Part shown: positions 6,991 to 46,468 of the stretch, piece by piece
Position numbering within the stretch: position 1 is the first letter of the stretch
Layout: every line of letters begins with the position of its first letter
Source of the DNA: a virus
Taxonomy: Duplodnaviria > Heunggongvirae > Uroviricota > Caudoviricetes
DNA: 46,468 nucleotides
Virus record (IMG/VR): IMGVR_UViG_2617270998_000006
Span: 1 to 46,468 of that record
Direction: 5' to 3' (one strand)
The notes under the pieces: model-generated
What the model saw: the letters and a program-made list of their open reading frames with translations, nothing else
What the model was told of the DNA's origin: nothing
Databases searched by the model: none
Program-made: the position numbers and the translations under genes

Positions 6991-7026
6991 AGGGGGAGGG
7001 GCTAACACCACCTCCCACCAGCGGGA

Positions 7027-10454: not shown

Positions 10455-10513
10455 ATTACTTTTTCCGAATTATGTGGATAGTTTTTATAAGTGATGATAA
10501 CTACCCAGGCTTT

Positions 10514-10614: not shown

Positions 10615-10639
10615 GCGATACACTTCTAGGCCAGACGTG

Positions 10640-10735: not shown

Positions 10736-10771
10736 AAAACCGGCCAACATAGCCGGTTGGAAGGAAGGGTA

Positions 10772-11164: not shown

Positions 11165-11175
11165 AAAAATCCCTT

Positions 11176-11791: not shown

Positions 11792-11803
11792 TGAAGTCCT
11801 TTG

Positions 11804-12592
11804 TTACCGTGCCGCTTTGTTTAATTCATCAAGAACAGAATCAGGAACCAAAGCGGCGACTGCGCTGGCTGTGCTGGCCTTATTTGCTGATGCTTCCGCA
11901 AGCGCGGTACCGATAGCATGGTTATAAGCAGTTATGGCTACGTTGGCGCTTTCATTCGCTCGTTCATACTGCTGTTGTAACGCAGTTGTGGGTGCTGTTG
12001 TCTGGTTGAAAACAACCCCAAACTGTTCAGTTGCTACTTTCAGAGATTCAATTTGCTCTTCTGTTAGTGCTGGTGGGGGAGTGGCAGTGCCGCCGCCTGA
12101 ACCAGAGCCTGACGAGCTTCCTGAGCCAGTGTTAAGGGTCTGGTTAATCTCCCCCATAGCAGCGACTAAACTTGATGTATTAAGCGCGTTTACAGCGTCC
12201 TCAAGCGATTTAGTAATAGTCACATCACCAATGGCAATAGAGATCGGCAGTTCTGAAACTTCTCGCTCATTAGCACGACAGTAAACATCCCAACCAATAT
12301 CGAGTTGAAGGAGCATTGACAGATCAGCATAACCAGCCAACAGGTCCGCGTGCTGAGTTGCCAGCCCTCCAATATTCGTTAAACCGGTTGCGGTTGTTCT
12401 GATCGTTGAAACATAGCTGGTAATAGTGTCGGGATAGACAATTGTATCCAGAATTAATCCGGTCAATTCTTCTGCAAGCAGTTTTGCTGTGTTAGCACTG
12501 TTTCGTGCCGATGTTATGGCACCAGGTGTTTTCATCCCACCGGCGGCGGCCAATTTTTTATATGCGGATAACTGGTAGTCTTTTTCCAGCAT
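11804..12592 (-). CDS. hypothetical protein with Gly/Ser-rich linker
   Basis: 262-aa ORF containing SGSSSGSGSGGGTATPPP low-complexity linker. Confidence 0.5.
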   Translation of the reverse strand: MLEKDYQLSAYKKLAAAGGMKTPGAITSARNSANTAKLLAEELTGLILDTIVYPDTITSYVSTIRTTATGLTNIGGLATQHADLLAGYADLSMLLQLDIGWDVYCRANEREVSELPISIAIGDVTITKSLEDAVNALNTSSLVAAMGEINQTLNTGSGSSSGSGSGGGTATPPPALTEEQIESLKVATEQFGVVFNQTTAPTTALQQQYERANESANVAITAYNHAIGTALAEASANKASTASAVAALVPDSVLDELNKAAR

Positions 12593-12885
12593 GATATCTC
12601 CTTACTTACCTGAACCAGGCCGTCTCCGGCTGCAACGGTAGAGCCGCATAAAACAGGATCACCAACGCATACGATCCCTTTCCCGTTGACGGTAAACCAT
12701 GCCCTGGTTGATATAGCTTGCCCGCCGTGCGTGCTGTTCCCATCGGTATGCTGTGCATATTGCTTACCATCAACTAACACTTCGACTCCGTTGACTTTAA
12801 GTAGTGGTTCGCTCTCTACGGGAGGCCTGGATGGGAATCCTCCGTGCCCCGAACAAATGCTGTCTTTTGTTGCAATACTTGCCAC
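12532..12885 (-). CDS. hypothetical Gly-rich small protein
   Basis: 117-aa ORF overlapping the upstream gene by about 60 nt; start uncertain. Confidence 0.35.
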   Translation of the reverse strand: MASIATKDSICSGHGGFPSRPPVESEPLLKVNGVEVLVDGKQYAQHTDGNSTHGGQAISTRAWFTVNGKGIVCVGDPVLCGSTVAAGDGLVQVSKEISCWKKTTSYPHIKNWPPPVG

Positions 12886-12966
12886 GTCATCACCAATGAT
12901 TTGCTCTGATTTTCGTTATTTTAACTTAGGTTATTTGTGGTCTGCATGGCGTTTACTTATTGCAAA

Positions 12967-12983
12967 ATTGCTCTAATAAATAT
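12967..12983 (+). promoter_or_regulatory. C1 repressor operator (ATTGCTCTAATAAAT-type)
   Basis: ATTGCTCTAATAAATAT matches the asymmetric 17-bp P1 C1 operator consensus; sits just upstream of the next plus-strand gene. Confidence 0.6.
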
Positions 12984-13054
12984 TGTTTTTTATGTCGTGT
13001 TTTCGGTACCATTCAGCCATCGCCCTTCAATGGGCATTTGTTTGGAGTCGTCAG

Positions 13055-13339
13055 ATGCAGATGGAGCTAATAAGCCGCAAGGAGTTCGATAGCCGTGTAA
13101 CCAGCGGTGAACTCGACAACTTGCAGGCTATCAAGGTGAAAGAAGGCTTTTGCCTCATTGGGAATCAGAGCGGAACAAATCACGTTTTTATGCTTCGCCG
13201 TACGGATTTGAAGCCATTTGTCTGGAAGAACGAAATTGGTCCCAGCTCATACGCTCAAACGAGGGGGTGCTACAACCTGGCCTTTTTCTACAAAGACGAG
13301 CTTTCTGTGGTTGATATTCAAGGGTTACAACATGTTTAA
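13055..13339 (+). CDS. hypothetical protein (P1 uhr-like by position)
   Basis: Start moved to internal ATG (MQMELISRK...) preceded by GGAG; immediately downstream of a C1 operator. Confidence 0.45.
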   Translation: MQMELISRKEFDSRVTSGELDNLQAIKVKEGFCLIGNQSGTNHVFMLRRTDLKPFVWKNEIGPSSYAQTRGCYNLAFFYKDELSVVDIQGLQHV

Positions 13340-13529
13340 GCACTGGAAAAACATTTCTATTTATAAAGTTTCTTGTGAGGCGGATCTGACCGACTTAGAA
13401 GATAAAAATAAAATGATCCTATTCACGCCATGCGGTAGCCAGGATATGGCCAAGTTCGGTTTTGTATCGCCATTTGGTGATAATTCCGAAGTGATCGCTA
13501 TGCATGGAAATGGCTTTATCCGGACATGA
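13332..13529 (+). CDS. hypothetical small protein (possible N-terminal part of a split nuclease)
   Basis: 65-aa ORF whose stop overlaps the next start in an ATGA arrangement. Confidence 0.3.
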   Translation: MFKHWKNISIYKVSCEADLTDLEDKNKMILFTPCGSQDMAKFGFVSPFGDNSEVIAMHGNGFIRT

Positions 13530-30599: not shown

Positions 30600-31241
30600 A
30601 TGGATAAGAAAATATGCGTTGTTTCGATGAGCGTCGGCAAACCGGCGTCAATGACTGCTGCATGGATCAATAACGAGCTGATAATGGCTGAGCGGACCAG
30701 CTACCCTGAACGCCGCCGCGACATGGAACTCCAGCTGCTGCGCGAATTGCGAGAAAAAGAGGAAAAGGGTTTTATCGTGCTGGTGGAAGAGGAAAACAGC
30801 TTTATTACTGGTCGAGTTGGCCAGCGTGTAAGGTTGCGCGATCCCTTCATGAACGGCAGGCCGGTACTAATTGAGGCAATGCAGATTTATAAGGAGCTGG
30901 AACGCCAGAAAGCAATCAAGTTACCGCGCAAGGAATCCGGCAAATACATCCTCCACCAAAGCATCTTCGATTCCGAACACGATAAAAAAGGCGATGAATT
31001 TTTCAACATCAATTGGAGCGAAATAACGACAGAGCATGTTCTGACGTTACTCTGTTGCTTTGCGACGGAATACAACAACGTTGCCAGCGCCGACTACATC
31101 AGGGCAATGGCTTGTGAAGTGGATAGTCGTGATGACTCATCGCTGATAGCGTCATATATAAACATCATCAAGAAAACTCAAATTATGGGATGCGCTAGAG
31201 TTCCTCAAGGAATACTCACCGGAAAGAATAATATTCTATAA
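30600..31241 (+). CDS. hypothetical protein (P1 mat-position gene)
   Basis: Start moved to internal ATG (MDKKICVV...); last plus-strand gene before the variable region. Confidence 0.4.
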   Translation: MDKKICVVSMSVGKPASMTAAWINNELIMAERTSYPERRRDMELQLLRELREKEEKGFIVLVEEENSFITGRVGQRVRLRDPFMNGRPVLIEAMQIYKELERQKAIKLPRKESGKYILHQSIFDSEHDKKGDEFFNINWSEITTEHVLTLLCCFATEYNNVASADYIRAMACEVDSRDDSSLIASYINIIKKTQIMGCARVPQGILTGKNNIL

Positions 31242-31338
31242 CCTACGAAGGTTATTTGTTACTTTCTGCGTAAACCTACAACTAACCTTCCTAAGTTAAG
31301 GAAGGTATTTATCATGAAGTGTAGACATAAGCGTATTA

Positions 31339-32379
31339 TTACATGGGCTTAACCACAACCTTTCCGTATATATCAAGTTTTGAATGTAATACGTTGACGT
31401 GAGACAATTCTTTATTCGAACTAACTTTATCTAAAATTATATTTTTATCTTTTTCAGTCATGTTATACCCTAAGGTAATTTGCTTGAATGCAGAAAAAGG
31501 AATTTTCTTTAAGTTAATTTCATGATAGTCATGAAAAACATCAGGATACTCATTTAATAGGCAGTCATCAATCGATGGAGAGACAATGCTTCCTATTTTT
31601 CTCTCGCAATCAGCCAATGGAAAAATAATTCTACTTTCATTTTCAGGAAGCCACTCTTCACCTTTTGTATAAAGAAGCCTATTAATAAAAAGCTCGCGAA
31701 CTGAATCTCGATTTAAGATCCCATGCAATGTATTATCTTTATTCTTTATATCTATATTCCTCGATGGCGCAGGATAGCCATTAAATCGCACAGCGCCTTT
31801 ATAATAGGTTACAGATGCTCTATCTTCTGGATTATAACTAACATCACACGGCCGATATATTTTGAAAAAATCGTGTGTTTCATCGAAAACTACAGCAAAC
31901 CCCTTTCCTATCGATGCATAATGAGTCCACATGTGTAGATTGCAATCACTTTTTGATAGAGAGAACACACCAAGATGACAGCTTACGGCTTCTACTAAAT
32001 AATCGTTAAGGTACGTTACTATTTCTTGGAGTTTAGATTCATCATATGAATCCATTGAGGTAAAACCTTCATTGATTAACAAGTGTGGAAAATCCTCTCC
32101 GTATCGTTTCCCGCAAGGTTTTAAATAATACTCTAACTCTTGTATAGATGGGACATAAGATGGATCTCGTTGCATTTTCTTAAATTCATTTCTAGCCCAT
32201 GCGTAATCGGCTGGTGAAAATTTATTAAAAAATGGAAGAAGTCGCGACTCACTCGACGGATCATTAAGATACTTTGGTTGCGTTGCTCTAAAGAAACCAT
32301 CCTCCAGACAAGATGTTCTAATGTGCATGCCCGGCCAAGGTTTATCCATATAACTCTCGCCTATATATTTAACTAACAC
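31339..32379 (-). CDS. DUF2971-like protein
   Basis: 346-aa ORF, visibly AT-rich; N-terminal FxxxxPxxxNDPxxE-like segment (FFRATQPKYLNDPSSE) and central VFSLS...HMWTHYASIGKGFAVVFD resembling the DUF2971 signature. Confidence 0.5.
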   Translation of the reverse strand: MLVKYIGESYMDKPWPGMHIRTSCLEDGFFRATQPKYLNDPSSESRLLPFFNKFSPADYAWARNEFKKMQRDPSYVPSIQELEYYLKPCGKRYGEDFPHLLINEGFTSMDSYDESKLQEIVTYLNDYLVEAVSCHLGVFSLSKSDCNLHMWTHYASIGKGFAVVFDETHDFFKIYRPCDVSYNPEDRASVTYYKGAVRFNGYPAPSRNIDIKNKDNTLHGILNRDSVRELFINRLLYTKGEEWLPENESRIIFPLADCERKIGSIVSPSIDDCLLNEYPDVFHDYHEINLKKIPFSAFKQITLGYNMTEKDKNIILDKVSSNKELSHVNVLHSKLDIYGKVVVKPM

Positions 32380-32431
32380 TGTATGTCGATCCTGTTGTTT
32401 AAGCCCATATCATATGGGCTTTAAATGATTA

Positions 32432-32680
32432 TTAATCAGCATTCAGAAGCAATGCGTTATCTATGATGATCTGCTCCCATTCTTCGAATGCCCGATCGCG
32501 GACACCTTGGGGAACACTGTTAGTTTTGAAATCGACGACCGTCCGCCATTTCCCGTCCGGGCGGTACATGCGCAGAGCTTTACTTCCCCCTTCCCTGCGC
32601 ACCTCAACGTTATGCTTGTCAGCAAACTCTTGTAATGCTCGTAGCGTCCCATGCTTTACTGTGTAGTATCGCTTTTTCAA
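32432..32680 (-). CDS. hypothetical small protein, weak HicA/YcfA-like resemblance
   Basis: 82-aa ORF; segment LQEFADKHNVEVRREGGSKALRMYRPDGKWRTVVDF resembles HicA but lacks the GSHH histidines. Confidence 0.3.
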   Translation of the reverse strand: MKKRYYTVKHGTLRALQEFADKHNVEVRREGGSKALRMYRPDGKWRTVVDFKTNSVPQGVRDRAFEEWEQIIIDNALLLNAD

Positions 32681-32778
32681 GTTTTCTCTCCAGCCTGTGC
32701 CAAGGCTTCAACTTCCAAATCGTAAGACTCAAACTCATAGTCCTGGTCGTCAACTTCTTCAGGCACTGGCAGTAAATG

Positions 32779-33117
32779 CTAGGCTGAGTATATCTGACCA
32801 TTATCAAAACGCTCCTGGCTGTAGAGCGTCGCGGCTATGAGTGTTAGCGCCGGGCGGTCATAACGGTAAATTTTGCGAACGTCACGGTCAACGAGACGAC
32901 CGAAATTACCATAACCGCGCTCCAGTAATAATTTTTTAATTTCCGGCCAGTATGGGCCATAGCTGCGGTACAGACGGGGATTTTTCAGTAATCGCCCGCG
33001 TAGCCCTGACAGGAAGAAATCAACGTATTCGTCTTCTGTCTTTCCTAACAACGCTGTACGGAGTACCGCTTCAAGATATGTTTTATTCGGTTTTATTGTA
33101 TCAGATAGTGTGGCCAT
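32779..33117 (-). CDS. hypothetical protein
   Basis: 112-aa ORF co-oriented with neighbours; no motif recognised. Confidence 0.4.
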   Translation of the reverse strand: MATLSDTIKPNKTYLEAVLRTALLGKTEDEYVDFFLSGLRGRLLKNPRLYRSYGPYWPEIKKLLLERGYGNFGRLVDRDVRKIYRYDRPALTLIAATLYSQERFDNGQIYSA

Positions 33118-33150
33118 ATTATGCGACGCCCGGCGAACCGGGCGCTCCTG

Positions 33151-34518
33151 TTATGCGTATTGTTGGATGACGGCCAGAACGTCCGCCACGTTGTGTTTTG
33201 TCTCGATAATCCACCAGTTACCCGGGAAATCGCTGTTCTTTGCCTTCGCTGGCAGCCAGCGAGCGCCGAATTTCGCCTTGATTGCGTCTTTCGCACGGAA
33301 AAGAATGCCTTTCATGCCGGACGCCTCCTGAAGCCCAAATACCTCGCCAGCGGCGAATTTTGGTGCGTACATCATCTTCAGGTCGGCGGTGGATACGCGA
33401 TAATTCAGACCAAGAGACTGAGCTATGCTGGTGGCATCACCCTGTATTGATGATAACTCTTCTTGTTTCTCGTTTCTGGCGGCAATTTCTTCCTCCGTGA
33501 TGTTGCCAAGGGCCAGGTTTATCCGATCAGCGTCGGCCTGTTTCTCTTCATCGGTGCGCCCGGCAAGAACCGTGTTAATTCTCTGCAATATCTCCACATG
33601 ATTCTTGCGCATGCTGAGCAATTCCGGCGTAACATCGTTAAGAGCCACCAGCCCAAGGATGGCAAGGTCGGAAAACATTGATACCAGGTTGTAGGTCATG
33701 CGATAGCTGAGTTGGCCATAGGCTGATGGCAACTGCACCGCATCCATTTGATAGGCATCCATAAATTTAGAGCCGTCGTTTACGACATCCGCAATTGCCG
33801 GTGTGATTTTCCCTGTGGTGGCGGCCTCCCTGATTGCTGTTACCCACGATTGAGTCAGCGCGGCGACTGCATGATTCAGATTGGCTTTCCGTTCTGCTGC
33901 AATGCGCGCGCTTGCTGCGTCCATTGCCTGCTTGATCTCGTCTTTATTGCTGTAAATGCCAATGGGACCAAACTGTGTTGTGGTGATCTCATAATCTGAC
34001 GCCCGGAACTCATTGGTACCGAAAATGGCATTGGTGACCTCAAGTTCAGAATCCCCGTTACGAGTAGCCCCCTGACTTGTTTTCTCCGGCATTTTTGCGA
34101 TCGCATCCGCTATTTTCTCCTGAATTGCTTCAGGGGATAGCGTATCTCCGTATGACGCGATTACATCGCTATAATTGGATCCAAACAGTTCAGTCAGGAA
34201 TACTTCTGCCAAACGGACCTGGCGGTTATTCCCTTCCGACATCATACCAAGCACCCATTTAGCAATTGACGACTTCAGCGCGCCGTCACGGCGATCCGGG
34301 TAAACCGCATGCTTCAGTGGGTCCGTATAGGTACCAACAAAATCAATGCTATAGCCTGACTCTGTAGTCTGAACGCCGTATGAGTCAGTGATTTTGATCA
34401 TGCCGCGCTGCTGGAAACGGTAGAAATCGTCACAGGAAATGATGTCGTTAATCCCGGCGATGGAGACGCCACCACTGATTTTCTGCATAACAGCATCTTC
34501 ATCGGGAGTTACATCCAC
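33151..34518 (-). CDS. hypothetical protein (455 aa), downstream partner of an overlapping two-gene operon
   Basis: Start overlaps the upstream gene stop by 10 nt; no catalytic or nucleotide-binding motif recognised. Confidence 0.5.
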   Translation of the reverse strand: MDVTPDEDAVMQKISGGVSIAGINDIISCDDFYRFQQRGMIKITDSYGVQTTESGYSIDFVGTYTDPLKHAVYPDRRDGALKSSIAKWVLGMMSEGNNRQVRLAEVFLTELFGSNYSDVIASYGDTLSPEAIQEKIADAIAKMPEKTSQGATRNGDSELEVTNAIFGTNEFRASDYEITTTQFGPIGIYSNKDEIKQAMDAASARIAAERKANLNHAVAALTQSWVTAIREAATTGKITPAIADVVNDGSKFMDAYQMDAVQLPSAYGQLSYRMTYNLVSMFSDLAILGLVALNDVTPELLSMRKNHVEILQRINTVLAGRTDEEKQADADRINLALGNITEEEIAARNEKQEELSSIQGDATSIAQSLGLNYRVSTADLKMMYAPKFAAGEVFGLQEASGMKGILFRAKDAIKAKFGARWLPAKAKNSDFPGNWWIIETKHNVADVLAVIQQYA

Positions 34519-35300
34519 CTGTTATCCAGCGTCTTCACATCCCAGTTACCCGATTTGGTGCCTTTGAAGGTAAAGATGATCTCCACGTCTGCGCGCTGGC
34601 TGTCGAAGTCCAGCGACTTAATGCGAACGATATCACCGGCACAATCGTAGTATTGGCCTACACGCCATGAGCGATCGCCGATAACAAGGAACTCACTCGC
34701 ATGGTTAACCAGGTCAGGATCAACATCCAGAATGCCTTTATTTATTGCATCCTCCACCAGCGGGCGCAGGCGTTTGATATCCGTCGCGGCCTTCTGAGTA
34801 CGGTTCAATAATTTCTCATAGCGGGAGATGGCTTGAGAGATATTAGCCTTGCGCTGAATGGCGCTTTTCAACGACGCGCGATACTGTGCTAACAACATAC
34901 GGTCTGTGTGATGGACACTCCCCCAGCGGGCCTTCCAGTCTGCGTTATCAGCTGCTTTGGCCATTACCGCCTGTTTGAATTTAGCTACCTCGGCGGTGGT
35001 CTTTTCAAATTCCGCTTTGCTTCGCTCTAATTCAGCGGTAAGTACCTCCACATCCTCACCAGCTGCGTGCTGCGCCTTGATGTAGTTCTGAAGGTCGATA
35101 GTAGCCTGTTCTTTCTGGCGAGCGCGTTGCGCGGCTTTCGCCTTATCCATTTGAACCTGCATCATTGCCAGACGTTCACCGTCATCCTTCGCGGTATACA
35201 TCTGCATTTCGATCATATCATTGGCGTCGGCGTTCTCCATTTCTGACTTATCTGAACGGAGGATATCGGAGATCCTGGGCTTCGTTTGGGAAACGTACAA
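34509..35300 (-). CDS. hypothetical coiled-coil protein (about 263 aa)
   Basis: N-terminal half Lys/Ala/Glu-rich and coiled-coil-like; start uncertain (ORF track uses a TTG that lies inside a 16-bp palindrome; first ATG is 20 codons in). Confidence 0.45.
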   Translation of the reverse strand: MYVSQTKPRISDILRSDKSEMENADANDMIEMQMYTAKDDGERLAMMQVQMDKAKAAQRARQKEQATIDLQNYIKAQHAAGEDVEVLTAELERSKAEFEKTTAEVAKFKQAVMAKAADNADWKARWGSVHHTDRMLLAQYRASLKSAIQRKANISQAISRYEKLLNRTQKAATDIKRLRPLVEDAINKGILDVDPDLVNHASEFLVIGDRSWRVGQYYDCAGDIVRIKSLDFDSQRADVEIIFTFKGTKSGNWDVKTLDNRWM

Positions 35301-35309
35301 TATTGTACG
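35294..35309. promoter_or_regulatory. perfect 16-bp palindrome CGTACAATATTGTACG (candidate operator)
   Basis: Overlaps the 5' end of the coiled-coil gene; the half-site ACGTACAATA recurs at 35478-35487. Confidence 0.3.
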
Positions 35310-35478
35310 GTTGCGCTATTGCGGTAGGGTGTACTCCAACGCTATACGGTCTTTGGCAGACCTTTAGGGAAATGAGATAAGCTAAATGCGATAAGAGAAA
35401 AGCAATAACTTAAAGGCAATAGCTGATTACGATAAATCAATCAGTTACTTATCAGTATCGATTAAAAAATGCTCCTAA

Positions 35479-35925
35479 CGTACAATAATTTCCGTTTCCC
35501 AAACCGCCCCCTCCGATCCCGCGCCGGTCTACCCGCAGACGCATCTGAGTTTTCTGGCAAACGTCTATAACCAGAAGGCGCGTGAGTTCTACCATTGTTA
35601 TGGCGTACAGTTGATCGACGCGGCGTATGAAGCGCATCAAGAAAAGGGCGATGTGCCTGTGATGATCACCAAGCATTGCCTGCGTTTTGCCTTTAATCTT
35701 TGCCCGAAACAGGCGAAAGGTAACATCAAAAGCTGGAAAGCGACGCCAATGCAACTGGTCAACGGTGATGAGGTACTGACGCTGAAATTTGGCTGTCGCC
35801 CGTGTGAAATGCACGTTATCGGCAAGATTAAAGATCACATTCTTAAAATGCCGCTGCCGGGCAGCGTGGTGGGTTCCGTCAGTCCGGAAGATCCGATGAA
35901 AACGCTGCCGAAGCGTAAACCTTAA
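35479..35925 (+). pseudogene. 3' fragment of a chromosomal-type gene (possibly U32-family peptidase-like), 5' end missing
   Basis: Open frame starts abruptly after an in-frame TAA with no plausible start or SD for the first 40 codons; GC-rich, unlike the flanking AT-rich DNA; family guess from the C-terminal sequence only. Confidence 0.4.
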
Positions 35926-36029
35926 TCCTTTGCGACATCAGCCCGGTGGCGTTTACCGGGCCTTTGTGTTGGTATTTATTTCCGCCGGTTAACGCCTGGC
36001 CCAAAGCCGACATCCGGCGAGGTGTCCGC

Positions 36030-36158
36030 TTAATGCGCTTTAAACCCCGCCGCAGTCATGAGCAGGCGAAAAAACATGCCCACCGCCGCCAGCGCCAACA
36101 CGCTGCCGCCCCAAAGGATGACCAGCCACATCAGGCGTTTCCAGAGAGAATGTTGCAT
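36030..36158 (-). CDS. small membrane protein (42 aa), putative oxidase accessory subunit
   Basis: MQHSLWKRLMWLVILWGGSVLALAAVGMFFRLLMTAAGFKAH; ATG overlaps the subunit II stop, as for CydX/AppX-type peptides. Confidence 0.4.
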   Translation of the reverse strand: MQHSLWKRLMWLVILWGGSVLALAAVGMFFRLLMTAAGFKAH

Positions 36159-37168
36159 CAGTGATACCCCTCGCCATGTTGCACTTTGCCGCGAAACACA
36201 TAGTAACTCCAGAAGGTGTACACCAAAATCACCGGAATGATGAGCAGCGCACCGACCAGCATAAACCCCTGACTCTGGGCGGGGGCGGCTGCCTGCCAGA
36301 GGGTAACCGAAGGCGGAATAATGTGCGGCCAGATACTGATGCCCAGGCCGCTGAAACCAAGGAAGATTAGCCCGAGCGTCAGCACAAACGGAAACGTGTG
36401 GTTTTCCGGACGACCCAGTGTGCGCCATAACCAGACGCTGAACGCGATCACCAGCACCGGAACCGGCAGCAGATAGCCCAGGTTGGGAAGCGTAAACCAA
36501 CGGTCGGCGATCGCCGGATGCGCTAACGGTGTCCAGAGGCTGATTATCGCAATTGACAACAGCAGGGCCAGCAGCAGTTTTTTCGCGACGCTGCGCATTT
36601 TATCCTGAAGCGGATTTTCGCTTTTCATCACCAGCCAGGTTGCGCCTAAGAGCGCATAGGCAACGACCAGTCCGACGCCACAGAACAGAGTGAAGGGGGT
36701 TAACCAGTCGAACGGCCCGCCGCTGTAGCTGCGACCGGTCACCGGGAAACCGTTGATCACTGCGCCAACCACGATCCCTTGGGCGAAGGTAGCCAGAATC
36801 GACCCGCCGAGAAAAGCATGGTCCCAAAATGGGCGGTGGGCTGGCGTGGCCTTGAAGCGAAACTCGAAGGCCACGCCGCGAAAAATCAGTCCGATCAGCA
36901 TCAGCGTCAACGGAATGGTCAGCGCATCGATAATAACCGCATAGGCCATCGGGAAAGCCCCAAACAGCCCCGCGCCGCCCAGCACCAGCCAGGTTTCATT
37001 ACCGTCCCACACCGGCGCGACGCTATTGACCATCACATCACGATCCTCTGCGTTTCGTGTGACAGGAAACAGAATGCCAATACCCAAATCGAATCCATCC
37101 ATCACGATATACATTAGCGTGGCGAAAACGATGATCACAAACCAGATAACCGATAAATCAATACCCAT
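36158..37168 (-). CDS. cytochrome bd-type quinol oxidase subunit II (CydB/CioB-like)
   Basis: 336-aa polytopic membrane protein with CydB-like N-terminus (VMDGFDLGIG); start overlaps the subunit I stop. Confidence 0.85.
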   Translation of the reverse strand: MGIDLSVIWFVIIVFATLMYIVMDGFDLGIGILFPVTRNAEDRDVMVNSVAPVWDGNETWLVLGGAGLFGAFPMAYAVIIDALTIPLTLMLIGLIFRGVAFEFRFKATPAHRPFWDHAFLGGSILATFAQGIVVGAVINGFPVTGRSYSGGPFDWLTPFTLFCGVGLVVAYALLGATWLVMKSENPLQDKMRSVAKKLLLALLLSIAIISLWTPLAHPAIADRWFTLPNLGYLLPVPVLVIAFSVWLWRTLGRPENHTFPFVLTLGLIFLGFSGLGISIWPHIIPPSVTLWQAAAPAQSQGFMLVGALLIIPVILVYTFWSYYVFRGKVQHGEGYH

Positions 37169-38568
37169 TAGCGATGTGCCTTATGTTGAGAATCGAGGAC
37201 GGCGGCGGAAAGCGGCCTGGCGGGTGTGCCCGGCGGCGGCGCGGAATCATCTTCCAGCGGGCCTTTGCGGATCAGGCGAATCATATAGCTGTAGCCGACG
37301 CCAAAGACTGAGCTGTAGACAACAAAGAAAGCGAGCAACGAAATGCTCATATGTAAATCGCCGTGGGCCGACACCGCGTCGGCAGTACGCTGTAAACCGT
37401 ACACCACCCACGGCTGGCGTCCGACCTCAGTGGTCACCCAGCCCGCGAGAATGGCGATGAGCCCCGAGGGTCCCATCCATAGCGCAAAGCGCAGGAACGG
37501 GCGCGAGGTGTAGAGGCGCTGCCTGTAGCGCAGCCAGAGCGCACAGAGCCCTAGCAGGATCATTAACATGCCCAGGCCGGCCATGATGCGAAACGACCAG
37601 AACACGATCGTCGAGTGAGGGCGATCCTCTTTGGCGAATTCTTTTAGCGCCGGAACCTGTTTATCCAGACTGTGCGTCAGGATCAGGCTTCCCAGCGCCG
37701 GGATCGCCAGTCCATAGCGGGTGCGTTCCTGTTCCATATCCGGCCAGCCAAACAGCAGCAGCGGCGTGGGCTCACCCGGCGGGTTTTCCCAGTGACCTTC
37801 AATCGCGGCGATTTTGGCTGGCTGATGTTTCAGGGTGTTCAGCCCATGCATATCGCCGATTAACGCCTGCACCGGCGCGACAATAAGCGTCATCCACAAC
37901 GCCATGGAAAACATCGTGCGAATGGCTGGCGTTGCGTTGCCGCGCAGCAGATGCCAGGCTGCCGAAGCGCCGACAAACAGCGCGCTACTGAGAAATGCGG
38001 CGACGGACATATGCAGCAGCCGATAAGGGAACGAAGGATTGAAGATAACGGCGAACCAGTCCACGGGCACAACCTGGCCGTTGACGATCTCAAACCCCTG
38101 CGGCGTTTGCATCCAACTGTTAGACGCCAGGATCCAGAAGGTGGAAATGAGGGTGCCAAGCGCCACCATGCAGGTTGAGAAGAAATGCAAACCCGGACCG
38201 ACTTTATTCCAGCCAAACAGCATCACCCCGAGGAATCCGGCTTCAAGGAAGAAAGCGGTCAGCACCTCATAGGTAAGCAACGGCCCGGTAATACTGCCTG
38301 CGAATTCCGAAAAACCGCTCCAGTTGGTGCCGAACTGATAGGCCATCACCAGACCGGAAACCACGCCCATGCCGAAATTTACGGCGAATATTTTTGACCA
38401 GAAGTGGTACAACGAGCGCCAGACCGGATTTTTGCTTTTTAGCCAAAGGCCTTCCAGCACCGCCAGATAACTGGCAAGCCCAATGGTGATCGCCGGAAAG
38501 ATAATGTGAAATGAAACTGTAAAGGCGAACTGGATCCTTGCCAGGTGATACGCATCAAGACCAAACAT
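37168..38568 (-). CDS. cytochrome bd-type quinol oxidase subunit I (short Q-loop, CioA-like)
   Basis: 466-aa membrane protein with CydA-like N-terminus (RIQFAFTVSFHIIFP); about 50 residues shorter than E. coli CydA/AppC, suggesting the short Q-loop subtype. Confidence 0.85.
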   Translation of the reverse strand: MFGLDAYHLARIQFAFTVSFHIIFPAITIGLASYLAVLEGLWLKSKNPVWRSLYHFWSKIFAVNFGMGVVSGLVMAYQFGTNWSGFSEFAGSITGPLLTYEVLTAFFLEAGFLGVMLFGWNKVGPGLHFFSTCMVALGTLISTFWILASNSWMQTPQGFEIVNGQVVPVDWFAVIFNPSFPYRLLHMSVAAFLSSALFVGASAAWHLLRGNATPAIRTMFSMALWMTLIVAPVQALIGDMHGLNTLKHQPAKIAAIEGHWENPPGEPTPLLLFGWPDMEQERTRYGLAIPALGSLILTHSLDKQVPALKEFAKEDRPHSTIVFWSFRIMAGLGMLMILLGLCALWLRYRQRLYTSRPFLRFALWMGPSGLIAILAGWVTTEVGRQPWVVYGLQRTADAVSAHGDLHMSISLLAFFVVYSSVFGVGYSYMIRLIRKGPLEDDSAPPPGTPARPLSAAVLDSQHKAHR

Positions 38569-38691
38569 GCCTGACTCCGCATTAAAAATTGATTCAGCGC
38601 AATTCTAAGCGTGTGAGGCAATGAGGGGCAGAAACAGAACAGACATATTTAACCATAACAGTTTGCAAATCGTTGTGAATTTTATTCACTG

Positions 38692-39150
38692 TTATACACT
38701 GCGAGGCTCACCTGCATTGACCGACGAGAAACCAGAATAAAAAATACCAGCGTCTGGCTGAACAACTTTGCGAACAGATCGCCTCTGGCGTCTGGCGACC
38801 CGGCGACGCGCGGCCTCTTTGCGGTGGGAGTCGGAGTCCATTGCGCTGGCTACGCGCCCGGCAGCAACGAAGTCATAAAGCATATCCTGTGCATGCTCAT
38901 CTACGGTGTCATCACGTAGCGGAATGCGGGCGTATTGTTCTTTGGTAAACACGACTGCACGGTAATTTGAGTGCGGGATTGCATTCATACGTGCCGTGAT
39001 AGTGGCTTCATCTGCCAGTTTAAGGGCATCGCGCATAACTGGAGTGCCATCAGTACCAAGAACAGGAGCACCTCCCACGCTAACGCGCGGGCCCCGAATC
39101 TCACCGTTCTGAAACCACAACAAAAAAACATCAGGAATAAAAAACACCAC
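38692..39150 (-). CDS. hypothetical protein, possibly a gene fragment
   Basis: 152-aa GC-rich ORF upstream of the oxidase operon; no motif recognised; may be a spurious frame in GC-rich DNA. Confidence 0.2.
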   Translation of the reverse strand: MVFFIPDVFLLWFQNGEIRGPRVSVGGAPVLGTDGTPVMRDALKLADEATITARMNAIPHSNYRAVVFTKEQYARIPLRDDTVDEHAQDMLYDFVAAGRVASAMDSDSHRKEAARRRVARRQRRSVRKVVQPDAGIFYSGFSSVNAGEPRSV

Positions 39151-39648
39151 ACAAACACAGCACTGTACCCCCCCTCATAACTGAAAAGCGCCGCCGCCCC
39201 CGCCCGAAGGGCGGGAACAACATCGCTTTTAATTATGAATGTTGTAAGTACATTGTCATCGCTGTCAGTCTTCTGGCTGGAAGTCCTCAGTACACGCTCG
39301 TAAGCGGCCCTCACGGCCCGCTAACGCGGAGATACGCCCCAACTTCGGGTAAACCCTCGTCGGGACCACTCCGACCGCGCACAAAGGCTCTGTCATGGCT
39401 GAAAACGGGTATGGCTTAGCAGGGCCGGGGGTGGGTAAGGTGAAATCTATCAGTCAGTACCGGCTTACGCCGGGCTTCGGCGGTTTTACTCCGGTATCAT
39501 ATGAAACAACAGAGTGCCGCCTTCCATGCCGCTGGCGCGGCATCAGGACAACTGAAGAGTGACGGCGCACATTAACATCAAACAGACTTGTTAAGCAGTC
39601 TTTCAGGGTGTAATCTGAAGACCTGTTAAATAGTCTCAGAGGTGTGTT

Positions 39649-39900
39649 ATGCCCAGTATCATTTTGTCTGACACCAGTGCAAGCGTCAGTGAGCTGAAAA
39701 AAAATCCGATGGCAACTGTCAGTGCCGGAGAGGGGTATCCTGTTGCCATTCTTAACCGGAATCAGCCAGCATTCTACTGTGTCCCTGCTGAGCTCTATGA
39801 AAGAATGCTTGATGCCTTGGATGACCAAGAGCTGGTAAAACTGGTTACTGAACGCAGCAGTCAGCCTCTGCATGATGTGGACCTGGACAGTTATTTATGA
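39649..39900 (+). CDS. RelB/StbD-family antitoxin (Phd/YefM fold)
   Basis: 83-aa ORF (MPSIILSDTSASVSELKKNPMATV...) resembling the plasmid StbD/RelB antitoxin; stop overlaps the toxin start. Confidence 0.75.
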   Translation: MPSIILSDTSASVSELKKNPMATVSAGEGYPVAILNRNQPAFYCVPAELYERMLDALDDQELVKLVTERSSQPLHDVDLDSYL

Positions 39901-40184
39901 CTTATACAGTAAAATTCCGGGATGATGCACTGAAAGAATGGCTCAGACTGGACAAGACCATTCAGCAGCAGTTCGCAAAAAAACTGAAAAAATGCAGTGA
40001 AAATCCTCATATAGCTTCTGCAAAACTACGTGGATTAAAGGACTGCTATAAAATCAAACTTCGCGCATCAGGTTTTCGTCTGGTTTATCAGGTTATTGAT
40101 GATATGTTAATTATTGCGGTCGTCGCAGTAGGTAAACGTGAACGCAGCAACGTTTATCATCTCGCCAGTGAACGGATGAAATAA
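39897..40184 (+). CDS. RelE/StbE-family toxin (ParE/RelE superfamily)
   Basis: 95-aa ORF (MTYTVKFRDDALKEWLRLDKTIQQQFAKKL ... FRLVYQVIDDMLIIAVVAVGKR) with typical RelE-family organisation. Confidence 0.75.
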   Translation: MTYTVKFRDDALKEWLRLDKTIQQQFAKKLKKCSENPHIASAKLRGLKDCYKIKLRASGFRLVYQVIDDMLIIAVVAVGKRERSNVYHLASERMK

Positions 40185-41043
40185 TATCCTGGTCAGCACT
40201 CTTTCTTACCTGCTTCCATTTTTTCAGTGATTCTTTTCCTGCATGCAGAAAAAAAGCCTACCCTGTGGGCAGGCATAACAGACAATCGCACAGTCAGTGT
40301 TGAAATTAATGATGTCACGCATTATACCCGGTGGATACACAAACCATCCCTGCAAATGCACTGGCATCCTAATCAACGTCTGAAACAACTGCAATGGCCG
40401 GACCTGTGATTTCAGAGAAAGTTATTATGTTTATTGAATATAACCGAAGTGATAAATAAAAGTATTATCACCTTTAATATTTATGCTTATTGCGTGGTTT
40501 TATCTGGTTATATAAAGCACAGATGTTCTTATTATTTTCTGAAAAATAACCATATGGATCGATTTCCCCCACCCAGCCGAAGCGGTTCGGCTCGTTCGGC
40601 GTGTCGTCGACACTGAAGCGCTTATCCACTTCGTTCCAGCGGTAAGAGTTGTCGCTGTCGCTGACGAATGCCATCGGGTCGCTAAACAGCGTGATCCGCC
40701 ATGCGATCAAAAAGCGTAAGTGTTTCCGACAGACGAGCCGGTGAAAAAAGTGGTGTGTCTGGCAATACAGGCATCGTCCCCGAAATGGACGATGCCGTTG
40801 AAGGACTGGGGTATGGCAATAAGCCGCTTTATTATCGGATTCAGTGACCGCCTGGACGGTTACTTTTGAGAAAAGGCATTTACACACAATCCTAAACAGA
40901 CTCCTATATTTCAGATTTTGTTATCAACGCATTTCAAATCTCTTAGAAATCATTACTGTCGTCATATTTTCCGAGGCAGCTCACCACCTAACCATGTCTT
41001 ATCAACAATATTTTGTGAAGGATATTTATAATGTAAAGACACA

Positions 41044-44000
41044 TCAGAAACGATATTCCACACTCAACATGGCAGATGTATTATGGTATCCATGTTCTCC
41101 AAGTTGAATGCCTGCATCAGCCCGGAATGCTACTTCTGGTGTTATCATTCCCACAACACCACCATTTATTTCTCCGATATCACGCGCACCATCCTGGTAT
41201 ATACTTACACCATTCATACTGGTGCCGAAAACACGACTATTGTGCAACCAGTGTGCCTCCACAAATGGTCTGAACGGAACCGCATACCGCGTATTTTTAC
41301 CGTTTTTGCTGGTAAGCCATGTTCTTGCTCCCAGGCGGGTGAGAATATTTCCGTTACCGGTATTTTCAATACTGGTTCCGTTACTTTCATGATATTTGTC
41401 TGATTTTACATTCATCCGGACAACCTGAAGCTGCGGCTGAACATACCATTCATGACTTCCCTTGTAATTGTCGGTAAACTCTCCAGCCTTCCATGAATAT
41501 CCTGCTTCCAGAGATACCGTAAACCCTTTTGACTTCCATGACTCAGCAGGCAGCCGTTCTCCATTTATATGATTATCAAACCAGCTGTATTGCAGCCAGC
41601 TATCAAGATAAGAACCATTGTGTGTTTCATCATTGGCATACCATGTTGCATAAAGACCCGCTGTGTATCCATTCATTCTTCCTTCCGAATGGTATCCGGT
41701 GCTCAGGGCATTCGTACTGTTATTATTATGACCATAGCCAGCCATCATACCTGTATGCCAGCGATCGGTACCATTCAGGCTCCACTGAGCTATATCTCCC
41801 CCTATTAACACAACGTAGCTATTCCCCCGGGTTCTCAGCTGACTACTGTTGTCACGCCAGCGATTATGTTTTCCTTTATTATACATCCAGATACCTGCTT
41901 CATTTTCTTCTCCTGTCATGTGGCTGATATACAACTCCTGTCCCTGTCGTTCATACAGATTCGTTACAAACAGATTATTTGCAGCAGCAATACTGGCAAC
42001 ATAGCTACCTGCCTCAGGACGCAAATTATTATCATGGCTTTCCGGTACAGCTTCAGGTTGTGGTACAGGAATGTCTTTTCTGCTAATCAGATACCAGTTA
42101 GTGCTGTTAATCCCCTGACCACGTTTCAGTATGTAATCATAAGCTCCGGCTGTAATACGTTCCGTCTGAATGAATTCAGCATTATCAGCATTGCCACTGA
42201 CGTGAATCACTTCAATCCCATTAAGTGTCTCTGCACCAGTACCACCGGCCTGAGTAACAGCGACACGGGTACGGCCACTGGCATTACCTTTAATCACCAG
42301 ACGATCTGTTTTCGAATTGTCACCACCTGTTTCTGTCTGGAGGAGAATAAGTCCATTTCTGCCAGTGTAATTCCCTCCGACAGTCAGTATATTACCCGGC
42401 ATATATGTAGTGAGATCGACTATACCACTATTGCTCAGATTTCCTGCAACGCCCCCAAACCCGGAGAGTTTGCCCTGCTCTTCAACAATGACCTGGTTAC
42501 TGCCGAGCATCACCGGTGAATCTGCGTTCCCCAGTATCACTGTCCCCTGAATAATATCTGTCATCCCGGTCCATTTTGCGTTATCGCTAATGTTCAGTGC
42601 ACCTGCTCCCGTCTTGCGAACATTACCATAACCACTGATATTGTTGGTAAGCTGCCATGCTGATGTACTGTTCAGAGTTAATGTGCCATAGTTATCAACA
42701 AAGGCTGTCCCCAGATTATCAGCCGTGGATACAGCCAAATGAGCCCCCTTATTCACGGTAAAAACACCGGAAAAATTACGATTATTACCCGTTATATCAA
42801 GCATTCCCCCATTTATGTTCAGAGAACCATCCCCTGCAATAGTACCTGCAGATTCTCCTCCATTATTCAGTATCAGACTTCCGCCATGAATGTTCAGCAC
42901 AGAGCCTGCAGCCGTCAGTAGTTTGCTTATTGTCTGAGGATACCCATTCATATCCAGTTCTGCGCCACGGGATAAATATAAATACTCAGTCCGACCAAGA
43001 GCATCAGGTGCAGCAAGAATTAATACGCCAGATTTAACCTCTGTATTTCCTGTATAATTGTTTGTTGCAGAAAGTATAAGAGTACCATTACCTGATTTTG
43101 TCAGACTTTTGCCGTCCCAGCCATCATATAATAAAGGTGAAAGATTATCGGAAAGAGAAACGCCTATGTTCAGAGTGGCATCTTTTTCTATATTAAAGGT
43201 TCCATATCCCATCCCTTTTGTATTATTCCATCTCAGCATGGATATCAGTTTGTTATCGTCGTCATTTAAAGACGTATAAACATAACTTTCAGCACCTTCT
43301 GTCAGTAATACATTGTATTGTACAATGTGACTATTATCAGCGATCGAGATACCTGTGTCTGACGACAATAATGTGTAATAGTCCTGAGTCCAGTTCTTAA
43401 TTGATGTGTCTATATTAAGCCATGAATCACTTTTTAATGTAATAGTATTTGCGTGAACATTAGCATTTCCTACAGACAGGTTCATAGATGCGTCTTCATC
43501 AATACTTATATTTCCGTTAAAAATGGAGTTCTTGCCTGACAGATAAACAGATGAGCCATTCCCAATCATTAGCCCACCATTAATTGCTGTTGCGTTATTG
43601 ATGTTTTTAATAATTAATTCATTTGTACCATTAACAGGTATACTAGCTAGTTTAATATCACCATTAATCACAGAATCTGAATAAATATCTAATGAATTAT
43701 ACCCGCCAGAAAAAATTATTGATGTATTATAAGCATCTTTTTGGCTATTATATAATCCTGAAAGATTACCATGATTATTAATATGGATATCTTCTCCATA
43801 AACAGAGCAACCACCGTCGGGGCCATATCCCCCCTGAACAATACCGTTATTATTCAAAGTGATTTGATTTCCAGAAATAGCATCTCCCCCTTGTTTTATT
43901 CCATATCCTCCAGATATTATGTTGTCGTTAGTAATGAAAAGATTACTACCATTAATACCATCACCACCGTTTACGCCATTACCGCCCAATATTCCTCCGG

Positions 44001-44541
44001 AATTATGCACTGTAATATTGCTACCGGTTACACCGGAACCACCTGTCCCACCTACATCATCACCTCCGTATATACTTCTGTAATTATCAACTATAATATC
44101 ATCCCCGCTTAACCCTGCACCTCCGCTACTTCCTGAGCCACCAAGACCATTACCCCCATATACATTTCTGTAATTGTTTATAGATATTTTGTTGCCACTA
44201 ACAGCAATTCCACCATTATATCCATCTCCTCCCCAAACACTACCATTATTATTTAGCGTAAAGTTTTCACCGTAGACACCTGCACCACCGATTGATGTAT
44301 TGCTTGTTCCTCCTTTGATGTTAATACTGCTTTCAACAGATAGTATATTTTGAGTATAACTTGTTTTATACGGCACGCTGATATTAAGCGCCGCGTTTCC
44401 ATCAACACCTGTAATACTCCTGGTTATACTTTCAGGTATACCATTACCATTCAGTTGTATTGTTTGCGCACCAGAAAAATGAGACTGCACAGAATAAAGT
44501 ATACTGACCAGAAATTGTAAAATTCGTATATTCTTATTCAT
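41044..44541 (-). CDS. autotransporter (type Va secretion) adhesin-like protein
   Basis: 1165 aa: signal-peptide-like N-terminus, Gly-rich passenger repeats (GGxGxxG, NNYR..GG), C-terminal barrel-like region ending in an aromatic residue (...SVEYRF); visibly AT-rich. Confidence 0.75.
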   Translation of the reverse strand: MNKNIRILQFLVSILYSVQSHFSGAQTIQLNGNGIPESITRSITGVDGNAALNISVPYKTSYTQNILSVESSINIKGGTSNTSIGGAGVYGENFTLNNNGSVWGGDGYNGGIAVSGNKISINNYRNVYGGNGLGGSGSSGGAGLSGDDIIVDNYRSIYGGDDVGGTGGSGVTGSNITVHNSGGILGGNGVNGGDGINGSNLFITNDNIISGGYGIKQGGDAISGNQITLNNNGIVQGGYGPDGGCSVYGEDIHINNHGNLSGLYNSQKDAYNTSIIFSGGYNSLDIYSDSVINGDIKLASIPVNGTNELIIKNINNATAINGGLMIGNGSSVYLSGKNSIFNGNISIDEDASMNLSVGNANVHANTITLKSDSWLNIDTSIKNWTQDYYTLLSSDTGISIADNSHIVQYNVLLTEGAESYVYTSLNDDDNKLISMLRWNNTKGMGYGTFNIEKDATLNIGVSLSDNLSPLLYDGWDGKSLTKSGNGTLILSATNNYTGNTEVKSGVLILAAPDALGRTEYLYLSRGAELDMNGYPQTISKLLTAAGSVLNIHGGSLILNNGGESAGTIAGDGSLNINGGMLDITGNNRNFSGVFTVNKGAHLAVSTADNLGTAFVDNYGTLTLNSTSAWQLTNNISGYGNVRKTGAGALNISDNAKWTGMTDIIQGTVILGNADSPVMLGSNQVIVEEQGKLSGFGGVAGNLSNSGIVDLTTYMPGNILTVGGNYTGRNGLILLQTETGGDNSKTDRLVIKGNASGRTRVAVTQAGGTGAETLNGIEVIHVSGNADNAEFIQTERITAGAYDYILKRGQGINSTNWYLISRKDIPVPQPEAVPESHDNNLRPEAGSYVASIAAANNLFVTNLYERQGQELYISHMTGEENEAGIWMYNKGKHNRWRDNSSQLRTRGNSYVVLIGGDIAQWSLNGTDRWHTGMMAGYGHNNNSTNALSTGYHSEGRMNGYTAGLYATWYANDETHNGSYLDSWLQYSWFDNHINGERLPAESWKSKGFTVSLEAGYSWKAGEFTDNYKGSHEWYVQPQLQVVRMNVKSDKYHESNGTSIENTGNGNILTRLGARTWLTSKNGKNTRYAVPFRPFVEAHWLHNSRVFGTSMNGVSIYQDGARDIGEINGGVVGMITPEVAFRADAGIQLGEHGYHNTSAMLSVEYRF

Positions 44542-44787
44542 ACTGTTTTTTCTTTAGTGATGCATTTTTTATCAACCACACAAGCACATTATTTCATTGA
44601 TACTAATCACATCAGGATGAATGTTTTTTCTCAATAGAAATAAGTGTCTTTATTCCTTACCAATTTATTCTGGTTATTCCTCTTATCCAGACGTCTCGTG
44701 ATACTCCCTGTATTTATTATAGAGTATATATATGTACTGCGTTTAAATCATGAAGACGACAACCTGTTTTACATAAATTATTCCTAA

Positions 44788-45461
<674 letters not shown>

Positions 45462-45523
45462 TCTTACCCAGCAATAGTGGACACGCGGCTAAGTGAGTAA
45501 ACTCTCAGTCAGAGGTGACTCAC

Positions 45524-45823
45524 ATGACAAAAACAGTATCAACCAGTAAAAAACCCCGTAAACAGCATTCGCCTGAATTTCGCAGTGAAGCCCTGAAGAT
45601 TGCTGAACGCATCGGTGTTACTGCCGCAGCCCGTGAACTCAGCCTGTATGAATCACAGCTCTACAACTGGCGCAGTAAACAGCAAAATCAGCAGACGTCT
45701 TCTGAACGTGAACTGGAGATGTCTACCGAGATTGCACGTCTCAAACGCCAGCTGGCAGAACGGGATGAAGAGCTGGCTATCCTCCAAAAGGCCGCGACAT
45801 ACTTCGCGAAGCGCCTGAAATGA
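45524..45823 (+). CDS. insE: IS3 transposase OrfA (InsE, helix-turn-helix)
   Basis: [52 protein letters not shown]... recognised as IS3 OrfA; the ORF track begins at an upstream GTG. Confidence 0.85.
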
Positions 45824-46468
45824 AGTATGTCTTTATTGAAAAACATCAGGCTGAGTTCAGCATCAAAGCAATGTGCCGCGTGCTCCGGGTGGCCCGCAGC
45901 GGCTGGTATACGTGGTGTCAGCGGCGGACAAGGATAAGCACGCGTCAGCAGTTCCGCCAACACTGCGACAGCGTTGTCCTCGCGGCTTTTACCCGGTCAA
46001 AACAGCGTTACGGTGCCCCACGCCTGACGGATGAACTGCGTGCTCAGGGTTACCCCTTTAACGTAAAAACCGTGGCGGCAAGCCTGCGCCGTCAGGGACT
46101 GAGGGCAAAGGCCTCCCGGAAGTTCAGCCCGGTCAGCTACCGCGCACACGGCCTGCCTGTGTCAGAAAATCTGTTGGAGCAGGATTTTTACGCCAGTGGC
46201 CCGAACCAGAAGTGGGCAGGAGACATCACGTACTTACGTACAGATGAAGGCTGGCTGTATCTGGCAGTGGTCATTGACCTGTGGTCACGTGCCGTTATTG
46301 GCTGGTCAATGTCGCCACGCATGACGGCGCAACTGGCCTGCGATGCCCTGCAGATGGCGCTATGGCGGCGTAAGAGGCCCCGGAACGTTATCGTTCACAC
46401 GGACCGTGGAGGCCAGTACTGTTCAGCAGATTATCAGGCGCAACTGAAGCGGCATAATCTGCGTGGAA
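45820..46468 (+). CDS. insF: IS3 transposase OrfB (InsF, DDE integrase core), 3' end outside window
   Basis: Open frame from ATG overlapping the orfA stop ([30 protein letters not shown]...) running to the window edge; -1 frame relative to orfA, as in IS3 family elements. Confidence 0.8.

Follow-up and report, generated by a model that had tools for sequence, protein, structure and literature searches.

How a terminal oxidase operon came to lie in a P1-like plasmid, and whether the junction that brings it there is genuine, are the questions raised by IMG/VR virus record IMGVR_UViG_2617270998_000006 (Caudoviricetes), of which positions 1 to 46,468, the whole stretch of DNA analyzed, are referred to here as the window. 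A first-pass annotation had described, at 35292-39180, an abrupt junction to GC-rich, chromosomal-type DNA carrying a convergent three-gene operon for a short-Q-loop cytochrome bd-type quinol oxidase. Taken as a whole, the locus is best explained, with good though not complete confidence, as a foreign insert that replaced part of the P1 gene darB, that has a history involving a Tn3-derived miniature inverted-repeat element (TIME) and IncF plasmids, and that probably encodes a functional oxidase.

The operon lies on the minus strand and comprises cioA (37168-38568; 466 amino acids; PF01654, E = 2.9e-169), cioB (36158-37168; 336 amino acids; PF02322, E = 1.5e-101) and cydZ (36030-36158; 42 amino acids; PF10617, E = 3.3e-15), which encode, respectively, subunit I with a short Q-loop, subunit II and a single-helix DUF2474 peptide that is the putative third subunit; the gene content first described is thereby confirmed. 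Consecutive genes overlap by 1 nt, with TAATG joining the cioA stop to the cioB start and TGATG joining the cioB stop to the cydZ start. In alignments to the solved bd-II and bd-I structures, the N-terminal 310 residues of CioA match 7OSE and 6RKO at E = 1e-70, and H21, E101, E109, H186 and M329 align with H19, E99, E107, H186 and M393 of the E. coli enzymes (axial heme ligands and catalytic glutamates). The alignment jumps from residue 317 to 381 of the AppC chain and from ~312 to 370 of CydA, such that ~60 Q-loop residues are lacking relative to E. coli AppC/CydA. CioA also scores far below the NCBIfam equivalog cut-offs, with 291 bits against 1025 for bd-II and 264 against 968 for bd-I, and the short Q-loop and these scores together therefore indicate a third kind of bd oxidase. 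DUF2474, named CydZ, is the small protein of short-Q-loop, 'cyanide-insensitive oxidase' (CIO) operons, and a subunit II gene and DUF2474 (CydZ) gene directly downstream in the same operon, the arrangement found here, define CIO subtype C (PMC4325964, PMC5322542). On sequence grounds, the enzyme is an ordinary, short-Q-loop member of the CIO-type bd family, and it may be active in E. coli.

The limits of the foreign DNA were set by comparison with p1079-IncFIB-N, a sister plasmid that lacks the cio operon. This plasmid is collinear with window positions 31000-35275 and 38798-44788 and has an uninterrupted 1,574-bp stretch of darB between them, so an insert at 35276-38797 (3,522 bp) must have replaced those 1,574 bp of the darB remnant. 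From left to right, the insert contains a TIME, the tail of a U32-family peptidase gene, the whole cioA-cioB-cydZ operon together with its native promoter region, and the opening codons of a divergent mocR gene. Matches to P1 darB within the window are restricted to 33001-35275 and 38798-39066. The left flank is a C-terminal darB remnant (33151-35275, minus strand; P1 L004 3801-6076), a frameshifted pseudogene that the Prokaryotic Genome Annotation Pipeline (PGAP) labels 'helicase, frameshifted, missing N-terminus' in identical plasmids, and the right flank is an internal 269-bp darB fragment (38798-39066, minus strand; P1 L004 7651-7919); both are 97.8% identical to P1.

The insert has a GC content of 55%, compared with 47.6% for the whole window; the GC fraction steps from 0.485-0.489 at 34.5-36.0 kb to 0.55-0.58 at 35.5-38.5 kb, and values of 55.4% for the module at 35512-38797 and of 56.8% for the cio genes, with ~69% at their third codon positions, were obtained. 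The abrupt switch at ~35.3-35.5 kb is thus real as a step in composition, but the DNA that had been read there as AT-rich and intergenic is a discrete 235-bp mobile element, which was overlooked. The GC-rich segment does begin mid-gene, as had been noted: it enters the U32-family peptidase gene at residue 526, and the fragment (35512-35925, plus strand), cut by the TIME, contains the last 137 codons (residues 526-662 of a 662-residue protein), is 93% identical in amino acids to residues 526-661 of the 662-residue Citrobacter amalonaticus orthologue, and appears in the PGAP annotation as 'collagenase-like protease, missing N-terminus'. The end first placed at 39180, by contrast, was too far to the right. 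The foreign segment stops at 38797-38806, in the ~17 remaining codons of a truncated MocR-type (GntR plus aminotransferase) regulator gene (38754-38806, plus strand; PGAP label 'GntR family transcriptional regulator, missing C-terminus'); P1 darB resumes at 38798-39066, and IncFII-type DNA with a RepA4 remnant follows from 39067. The mocR fragment and darB share a 9-bp overlap of microhomology at 38798-38806, which marks a deletion joint, and the left joint is a TIME end; both joints have the anatomy expected of real recombination. The open reading frames (ORFs) at 34509-35300 and 38692-39150 were rejected as genes, as each spans a junction of unrelated DNA, and an Rfam scan of 35000-40500 gave no match at E ≤ 1.

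The 235-bp element at the left end of the insert (35277-35511) has no ORF, a GC content of 41% and 26-nt terminal inverted repeats (35284-35309 and 35479-35504) that are 88% complementary. Its ends read GGGCTTCGTTTGGGAAACG... and ...CGTTTCCCAAACCGCCCCC, and they are of the Tn3-family type, GGGC/GGGG...GTACG(G/T)T(A). The element is a relative of MITESen1: full-length comparison with the sequences in Table S2 of Gomi & Yano 2026 (PMC13367494) gave 67% identity to MITESen1 and ~53% to IS101 and TIME244, the latter taken as background. With a size within 50-500 bp, no transposase gene, Tn3-family-related terminal repeats and copies in unrelated contexts, it is classed as a TIME, distinct from the four named in PMC13367494. 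Copies occur at 644 places in 373 PLSDB plasmids, in flanking contexts that include darB, U32, mocR, IncFII, IncK2/Z and phage PhiR41_1. Perfect 5-bp direct repeats were found at none of the copies inspected, two complete copies having matches at 4/5 positions (TTATA/TTACA in L089 and a shifted CATA in L106). Assignment of the 235-bp piece to IncF 'repA4' DNA was considered and rejected, because the thousands of IncF matches stem from 39067-39400. Among other copies of the TIME, truncated ones are abutted by IS110-family transposase genes (L088 ~3194-4298, L105 4214-5285 and L101 10137-11409). Members of the IS110 family are known to target Tn3-family repeats, and these genes beside cut TIMEs fit IS4321/IS5075-like targeting of Tn3-family terminal repeats.

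The DNA that received the insert is P1-like, as the first-pass annotation had proposed. Positions 1404-13521, with repA, parA and parB, are 97.7% identical to P1, the following 10 kb match P1/SJ46, and positions 21500-44789 are 99.4% identical to plasmid pLAO33, in which c1, cre, ref, pac, lpa, phd/doc, lxc and ulx are annotated. Together with the darB remnant, these assignments place the replication and partition genes and the lysogeny and packaging genes of a P1-like element within 46 kb. The closest complete relative, pLAO33 (NZ_OP242262.1), is typed as IncFIB/IncHI1B and non-mobilizable. Roughly half of a P1 genome is joined in it to an IncFIB replicon, to SopAB and to a multi-resistance region, and because of this mixture it is probably a defective phage-plasmid; many of the P1 virion genes seem to be lacking, and prt/pro/lyz and tail genes are not obvious in it.

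The same structure recurs in dozens of sequenced plasmids. The 4.2 kb at 35200-39400 are 100% identical in at least 29 PLSDB plasmids and in 17 complete RefSeq E. coli plasmids; the sources of the identical plasmids are humans, hens, pigs, deer, mink, crayfish, fish and wastewater, and Salmonella and Shigella are included. The operon is carried by 32 PLSDB plasmids and is full length, without gaps and at ≥99.8% identity, in 31 of them; one copy has been destroyed by a Tn3-family insertion. It was found in 26 of 5,426 complete E. coli genomes (0.5%), on a plasmid in all 26 and on the chromosome in none. In a public assembly collection, exact matches to CioA are indexed in 1,955 blocks and those to CioB in 3,692. 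The description of the oxidase as unusual cargo needs qualifying in this light: ~600-700 PLSDB plasmids carry the P1 lxc-ulx-darB end and roughly 4-5% of them (~30) have the oxidase, which recurs also on conjugative IncF plasmids.

The likely history of the insert is recorded in sister structures. In pEcoUTI1e, as in several contigs that an exact-protein look-up recovered, the same cargo lies between two inverted TIMEs inside darB; the backbone, otherwise P1-like, carries prt, pro, lyz and ssb to one side of the cargo and ulx and lxc to the other. The inner segment occurs in either orientation, one being seen in L002, L091, L095 and L096 and the other in L097, which has the orientation of the window and still possesses the second TIME. 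Relative to L097, the window has a ~565-bp deletion (122 bp of mocR, the second TIME and 204 bp of darB) with the 9-bp overlap at the joint. A TIME-COMP is defined by two TIMEs bounding a cargo; as the window has a single copy where its sisters have two, its form is a remnant, not a TIME-COMP. In pEcoUTI1e, a 3,888-bp composite sits where 1,366 bp of darB are missing and a further 2,267 bp of darB are deleted nearby, so the net change in size is small, which would be compatible with the limits of headful packaging. Intramolecular replicative inversion was rejected, as it does not fit the flank pattern of the TIME or composite.

A longer, 5.8-kb version is held by conjugative IncFIA/FIB/FIC plasmids (pEC213_1-OXA-181, pRHB25-C13_3 and others) and combines 1.56 kb of U32 sequence with the operon and an intact gene for a 469-residue MocR-type regulator (PF00392 and PF00155), adjoining an IncFII replicon. 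The IncF and P1 versions are 99.6% identical, with ~12 differences in 3,297 positions. On its U32 side, the IncF version is bounded by a TIME-like element of 284 bp that is distinct from the 235-bp one and has terminal repeats of the Tn21 type (GGGGCCGCCTGGAATTCGGAAAATAAACCACGTTAAG...); it was found at L003 4572-4855 (pEC213_1-OXA-181) and also in L100 from ~5053. Sharing only ~56% identity with IMU or TIME244, it seems to be a further TIME that has not been named.

These forms can be connected by a short series of events. A fragment of at least 5.8 kb would have left a Citrobacter-like chromosome and reached E. coli plasmids, its longest version lying beside the IncFII replicon of IncF plasmids. 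Copies of the TIME would then have come to occupy the U32 and mocR genes to give a 3.9-kb, TIME-COMP-like composite bounded by inverted TIMEs. The composite would have entered darB of a P1-like phage-plasmid, either through recombination at TIME copies or through transposition, for which a Tn3-family transposase would have acted in trans. The inner segment would have been flipped when the inverted TIMEs recombined with each other, and the ~565-bp deletion would have taken out the second TIME, leaving the form seen in the window and a lineage now widespread in E. coli, Salmonella and Shigella.

The gene order U32 peptidase, cydZ, cioB, cioA, mocR is the one found on the chromosomes of Citrobacter, Yokenella, Raoultella, Enterobacter and Kluyvera, among others. 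In a CioA scan of genome contigs, the best chromosome among the matches listed was that of C. amalonaticus, with 96% amino acid identity in CioA and 81-83% nucleotide identity, collinear over 5.8 kb. The donor is, to judge from these orthologues, a Citrobacter-like enterobacterium, and the gene order and the lack of an E. coli chromosomal copy bear out the proposed capture of chromosomal-type DNA from a different host. An exact 26-mer from mocR matched only IncF-type plasmid contigs among metagenome contigs, and the contexts obtained with the exact CioA and CioB proteins were all P1-like or IncF, apart from one 466-kb contig (L114, GCA_013359025.1). In the latter, the IncF-type cio region and IncFII repA adjoin cobU/cobS/cobT, an arrangement that represents either a chromosomally integrated plasmid or a misassembly.

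The insert retains the native cioA-mocR intergenic region (38569-38753, minus strand), in which a promoter-like site and a ribosome-binding site are predicted from consensus matches and conservation. The promoter-like site, at 38679-38652 on the minus strand, reads TTCACA-16 nt-TG-TATGGT; conservation across Citrobacter and other orthologous chromosomal loci takes in its -10 block, AACTGTTATGGTTAAA, as well as the leader, and GGAG lies 8-11 nt ahead of the cioA ATG as the ribosome-binding site. The minus-strand cioA leader (38600-38700) also contains a conserved inverted repeat, ATAACAG...CTGTTAT, that overlaps the -10 region, and a TTGCGCTGAATCAA box; both are common to the Citrobacter orthologues and could be operator sites. 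At the other end of the operon, a terminator-like hairpin (35941-35961, plus strand), a consensus match only, with a 9-pair stem (6 GC) followed by a T-run, lies between the convergent U32 fragment and cio genes. The divergent mocR is cut to ~17 codons in all P1-type copies, whereas the full 469 codons are kept in the IncF copies.

If this region is active, the operon would be transcribed from the retained sigma-70-type promoter without its regulator and, with the quinol pool, heme supply and CydDC of the host, a third quinol oxidase of the short-Q-loop, CIO type would assemble, adding a respiratory branch that is not native to E. coli. E. coli supplies the quinols, the hemes and the CydDC system that bd oxidases need, and assembly of an extra CIO-type oxidase in E. 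coli is therefore plausible. The disruption of darB would meanwhile cost the element its DarB anti-restriction function.

Three other accounts of the structure were weighed. An assembly chimera, in which a P1-like contig had been joined to DNA of a co-resident or contaminating GC-richer enterobacterium, would explain both the abrupt change in composition and a segment that starts mid-gene. The junctions, however, recur unchanged in no fewer than 29 complete plasmids that were obtained independently, by different laboratories and from different hosts and countries, and many of these are closed assemblies. As a plasmid with an empty site is also known, the insert is not a chimeric assembly; the anatomy of its joints, where the left one is a TIME end and the right one shows 9 bp of microhomology, and the existence of intermediates say the same. 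This explanation is refuted for the structure as such and has a vanishingly small probability. Scarcely more credible is that the window is chromosomal and its P1-like DNA an integrated prophage remnant beside native cyd or app genes, for which one could cite the IncF-type copy beside cobUST in the 466-kb contig and a contig of >1 Mb, known from an index match alone, that carries the exact protein. The 26/26 plasmid locations in E. coli genomes, the presence of P1 repA/parAB and the end-to-end match of the window to plasmids, together with an oxidase that is far below the CydA/AppC equivalog cut-offs and has DUF2474 in place of CydX/AppX, refute it for the general case. Two separate captures from one donor species, one for the P1 copies and the other for the IncF copies, would accommodate the ~12 differences between these versions as well as their different boundaries and different flanking miniature elements; this is nevertheless unlikely, as the IncF fragment contains all of the P1 fragment and more, both versions are ~17% diverged from every chromosome found, and no chromosomal copy close to either was recovered. 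A single capture, with passage between the two plasmid types, remains the preferred history.

Whether the cargo does anything for its host is a finer balance. The operon may be an inert passenger on mobile DNA, neither expressed nor assembled and persisting through a young and successful plasmid lineage, and we regard this as a substantial possibility while leaning somewhat against it. All of its neighbors (U32 peptidase, mocR and darB) are truncated and its dedicated regulator is gone, its copies are so alike (≥99.8%) that recent clonal spread fits them better than long maintenance, one copy has already been destroyed by a Tn3-family insertion, and no report of a phenotype was found in the literature. 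Against this, the deletions in all three contexts (the long IncF form, the two-TIME P1 form and the one-TIME P1 form) stop outside the three ORFs and the promoter block, 31 of the 32 plasmid copies are full length without gaps, and the conserved -10 block, leader and ribosome-binding site are retained; the spared ORFs and promoter and the number of full-length copies are weak evidence for selection. The most far-reaching functional proposal is that the operon, constitutive through deletion of its regulator, provides E. coli, Shigella and Salmonella with a third, CIO-type oxidase that sustains respiration under cyanide, sulfide, nitric oxide or very low oxygen, that it is spread by P1-type infection and IncF conjugation on an invertible and possibly transposing TIME cassette, and that it is selected, as an auxiliary respiratory trait borne by a phage-plasmid, in the gut or in wastewater. 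In this full form the proposal is tentative, and we consider it rather doubtful. Several points weigh against the favored account of a captured, TIME-borne and functional oxidase. Two bd oxidases that tolerate sulfide and cyanide are already present in E. coli, and the benefit of another is therefore not obvious. With MocR reduced to ~17 codons, expression would be unregulated, or absent and the operon silent if MocR is an activator. The search for the breakpoint and the donor locus that had been suggested at the outset gave exact breakpoints, through the empty-site plasmid, but the donor species was not found, the best chromosome among the matches listed being only ~82% identical in nucleotides. 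No 5-bp direct repeats flank the two-TIME composite (TACCT and AGGAT in pEcoUTI1e) or the single TIME, and 1,366 bp of darB are missing between the composite flanks; unit transposition of the composite is therefore not demonstrated. The order of events, with IncF or P1 first and the two-TIME form as the ancestral one, is likewise an argument from parsimony.

Beyond the insert, an IncFII-type segment (39067-40184, plus strand) contains the RepA4 remnant (39168-39419) and a Phd/YefM-ParE toxin-antitoxin pair (39649-40184; PF02604 and PF05016). The 39066/39067 junction, which joins the darB fragment (P1 position L004 7919) to the RepA4 remnant, is older than and independent of the oxidase insert, because p1079-IncFIB-N has the same junction. 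A 1,165-residue autotransporter with VirG insertion, pertactin, autochaperone and beta-barrel domains is encoded farther to the right (41044-44541, minus strand) and is common to many P1-like hybrid plasmids, including p1079-IncFIB-N. In some sister hybrids (L090 1-763; H109 and H113), a molybdopterin (DMSO/selenate reductase A-like) gene lies near the same autotransporter and is another respiratory-type cargo of this plasmid group. At 44856-46468, an IS5-family transposase gene (from 44856) is split, at ~45.46-45.5 kb, by an element of the IS3 family whose orfA runs from 45515, the family names being a reading of the translations. On the left, a DUF2971 gene (31339-32379, minus strand) adjoins lxc, and no P1 res/mod genes are annotated in the DUF2971-lxc region of this plasmid lineage.

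Literature searches on phage-plasmids or P1-like plasmids together with cytochrome bd, ubiquinol oxidase or cioAB found no report of this oxidase on plasmids of the P1-like or IncF type. What appears to be undescribed is the specific cargo, its site in darB and the newly recognized TIME; the enzyme family of the oxidase and the vehicle, a mosaic, are of known kinds. Work on the cargo of phage-plasmids has centered on antibiotic resistance and defense, and the cargo here belongs to core metabolism and is a type of terminal oxidase that E. coli lacks. Bd-type oxidases matter for tolerance of sulfide, nitric oxide and cyanide and for colonization. The Pseudomonas CIO has been discussed in this connection (PMC10968556). 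If active, the operon would alter the respiratory chain of gut pathogens in a transferable way; if inert, it would be one more mosaic junction only. In either case, darB is shown to be a cargo site whose disruption would trade away anti-restriction, and the TIME-COMP mechanism (PMC13367494) would be extended to a non-resistance cargo and a new TIME.

Comparison with known systems places each part of the locus. Relative to the chromosomal P. aeruginosa cioAB (CIO subtype C), the operon is alike in its short-Q-loop subunit I, a subunit II of ~335 residues, the DUF2474 peptide gene right after subunit II and the conserved heme-ligand residues. It differs in being an enterobacterial (Citrobacter-like) orthologue known from its sequence alone and in being carried on P1-like and IncF plasmids, the P1-type copies having lost the divergent MocR-type regulator. 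E. coli bd-I (CydABX) and bd-II (AppCBX) belong to the same protein superfamily, but CioA lacks their ~60 Q-loop residues, the small subunit is DUF2474 instead of CydX/AppX, and the operon has no DNA-level match on any E. coli chromosome. TIME-COMPs have been reported on putative phage-plasmids (PMC13367494), and they share with this locus a Tn3-type miniature element without an ORF, two inverted copies of which bound a 3.4-kb cargo in the sister plasmids; unlike them, the element here is not among the four named TIMEs, no 5-bp flanking repeats were found, the window keeps one TIME copy, and a respiratory operon takes the place of a resistance gene as cargo. Finally, the locus resembles the accessory cargo of P1-like phage-plasmids, such as blaCTX-M, blaSHV-2 and mcr-1 in variable regions (PMC9600943, PMC9603915), in that foreign DNA with mobile-element borders occupies a non-essential region of a P1-type backbone; its insertion site, darB, is not among the variable regions listed in PMC9603915, and what it carries is metabolic rather than a resistance determinant.

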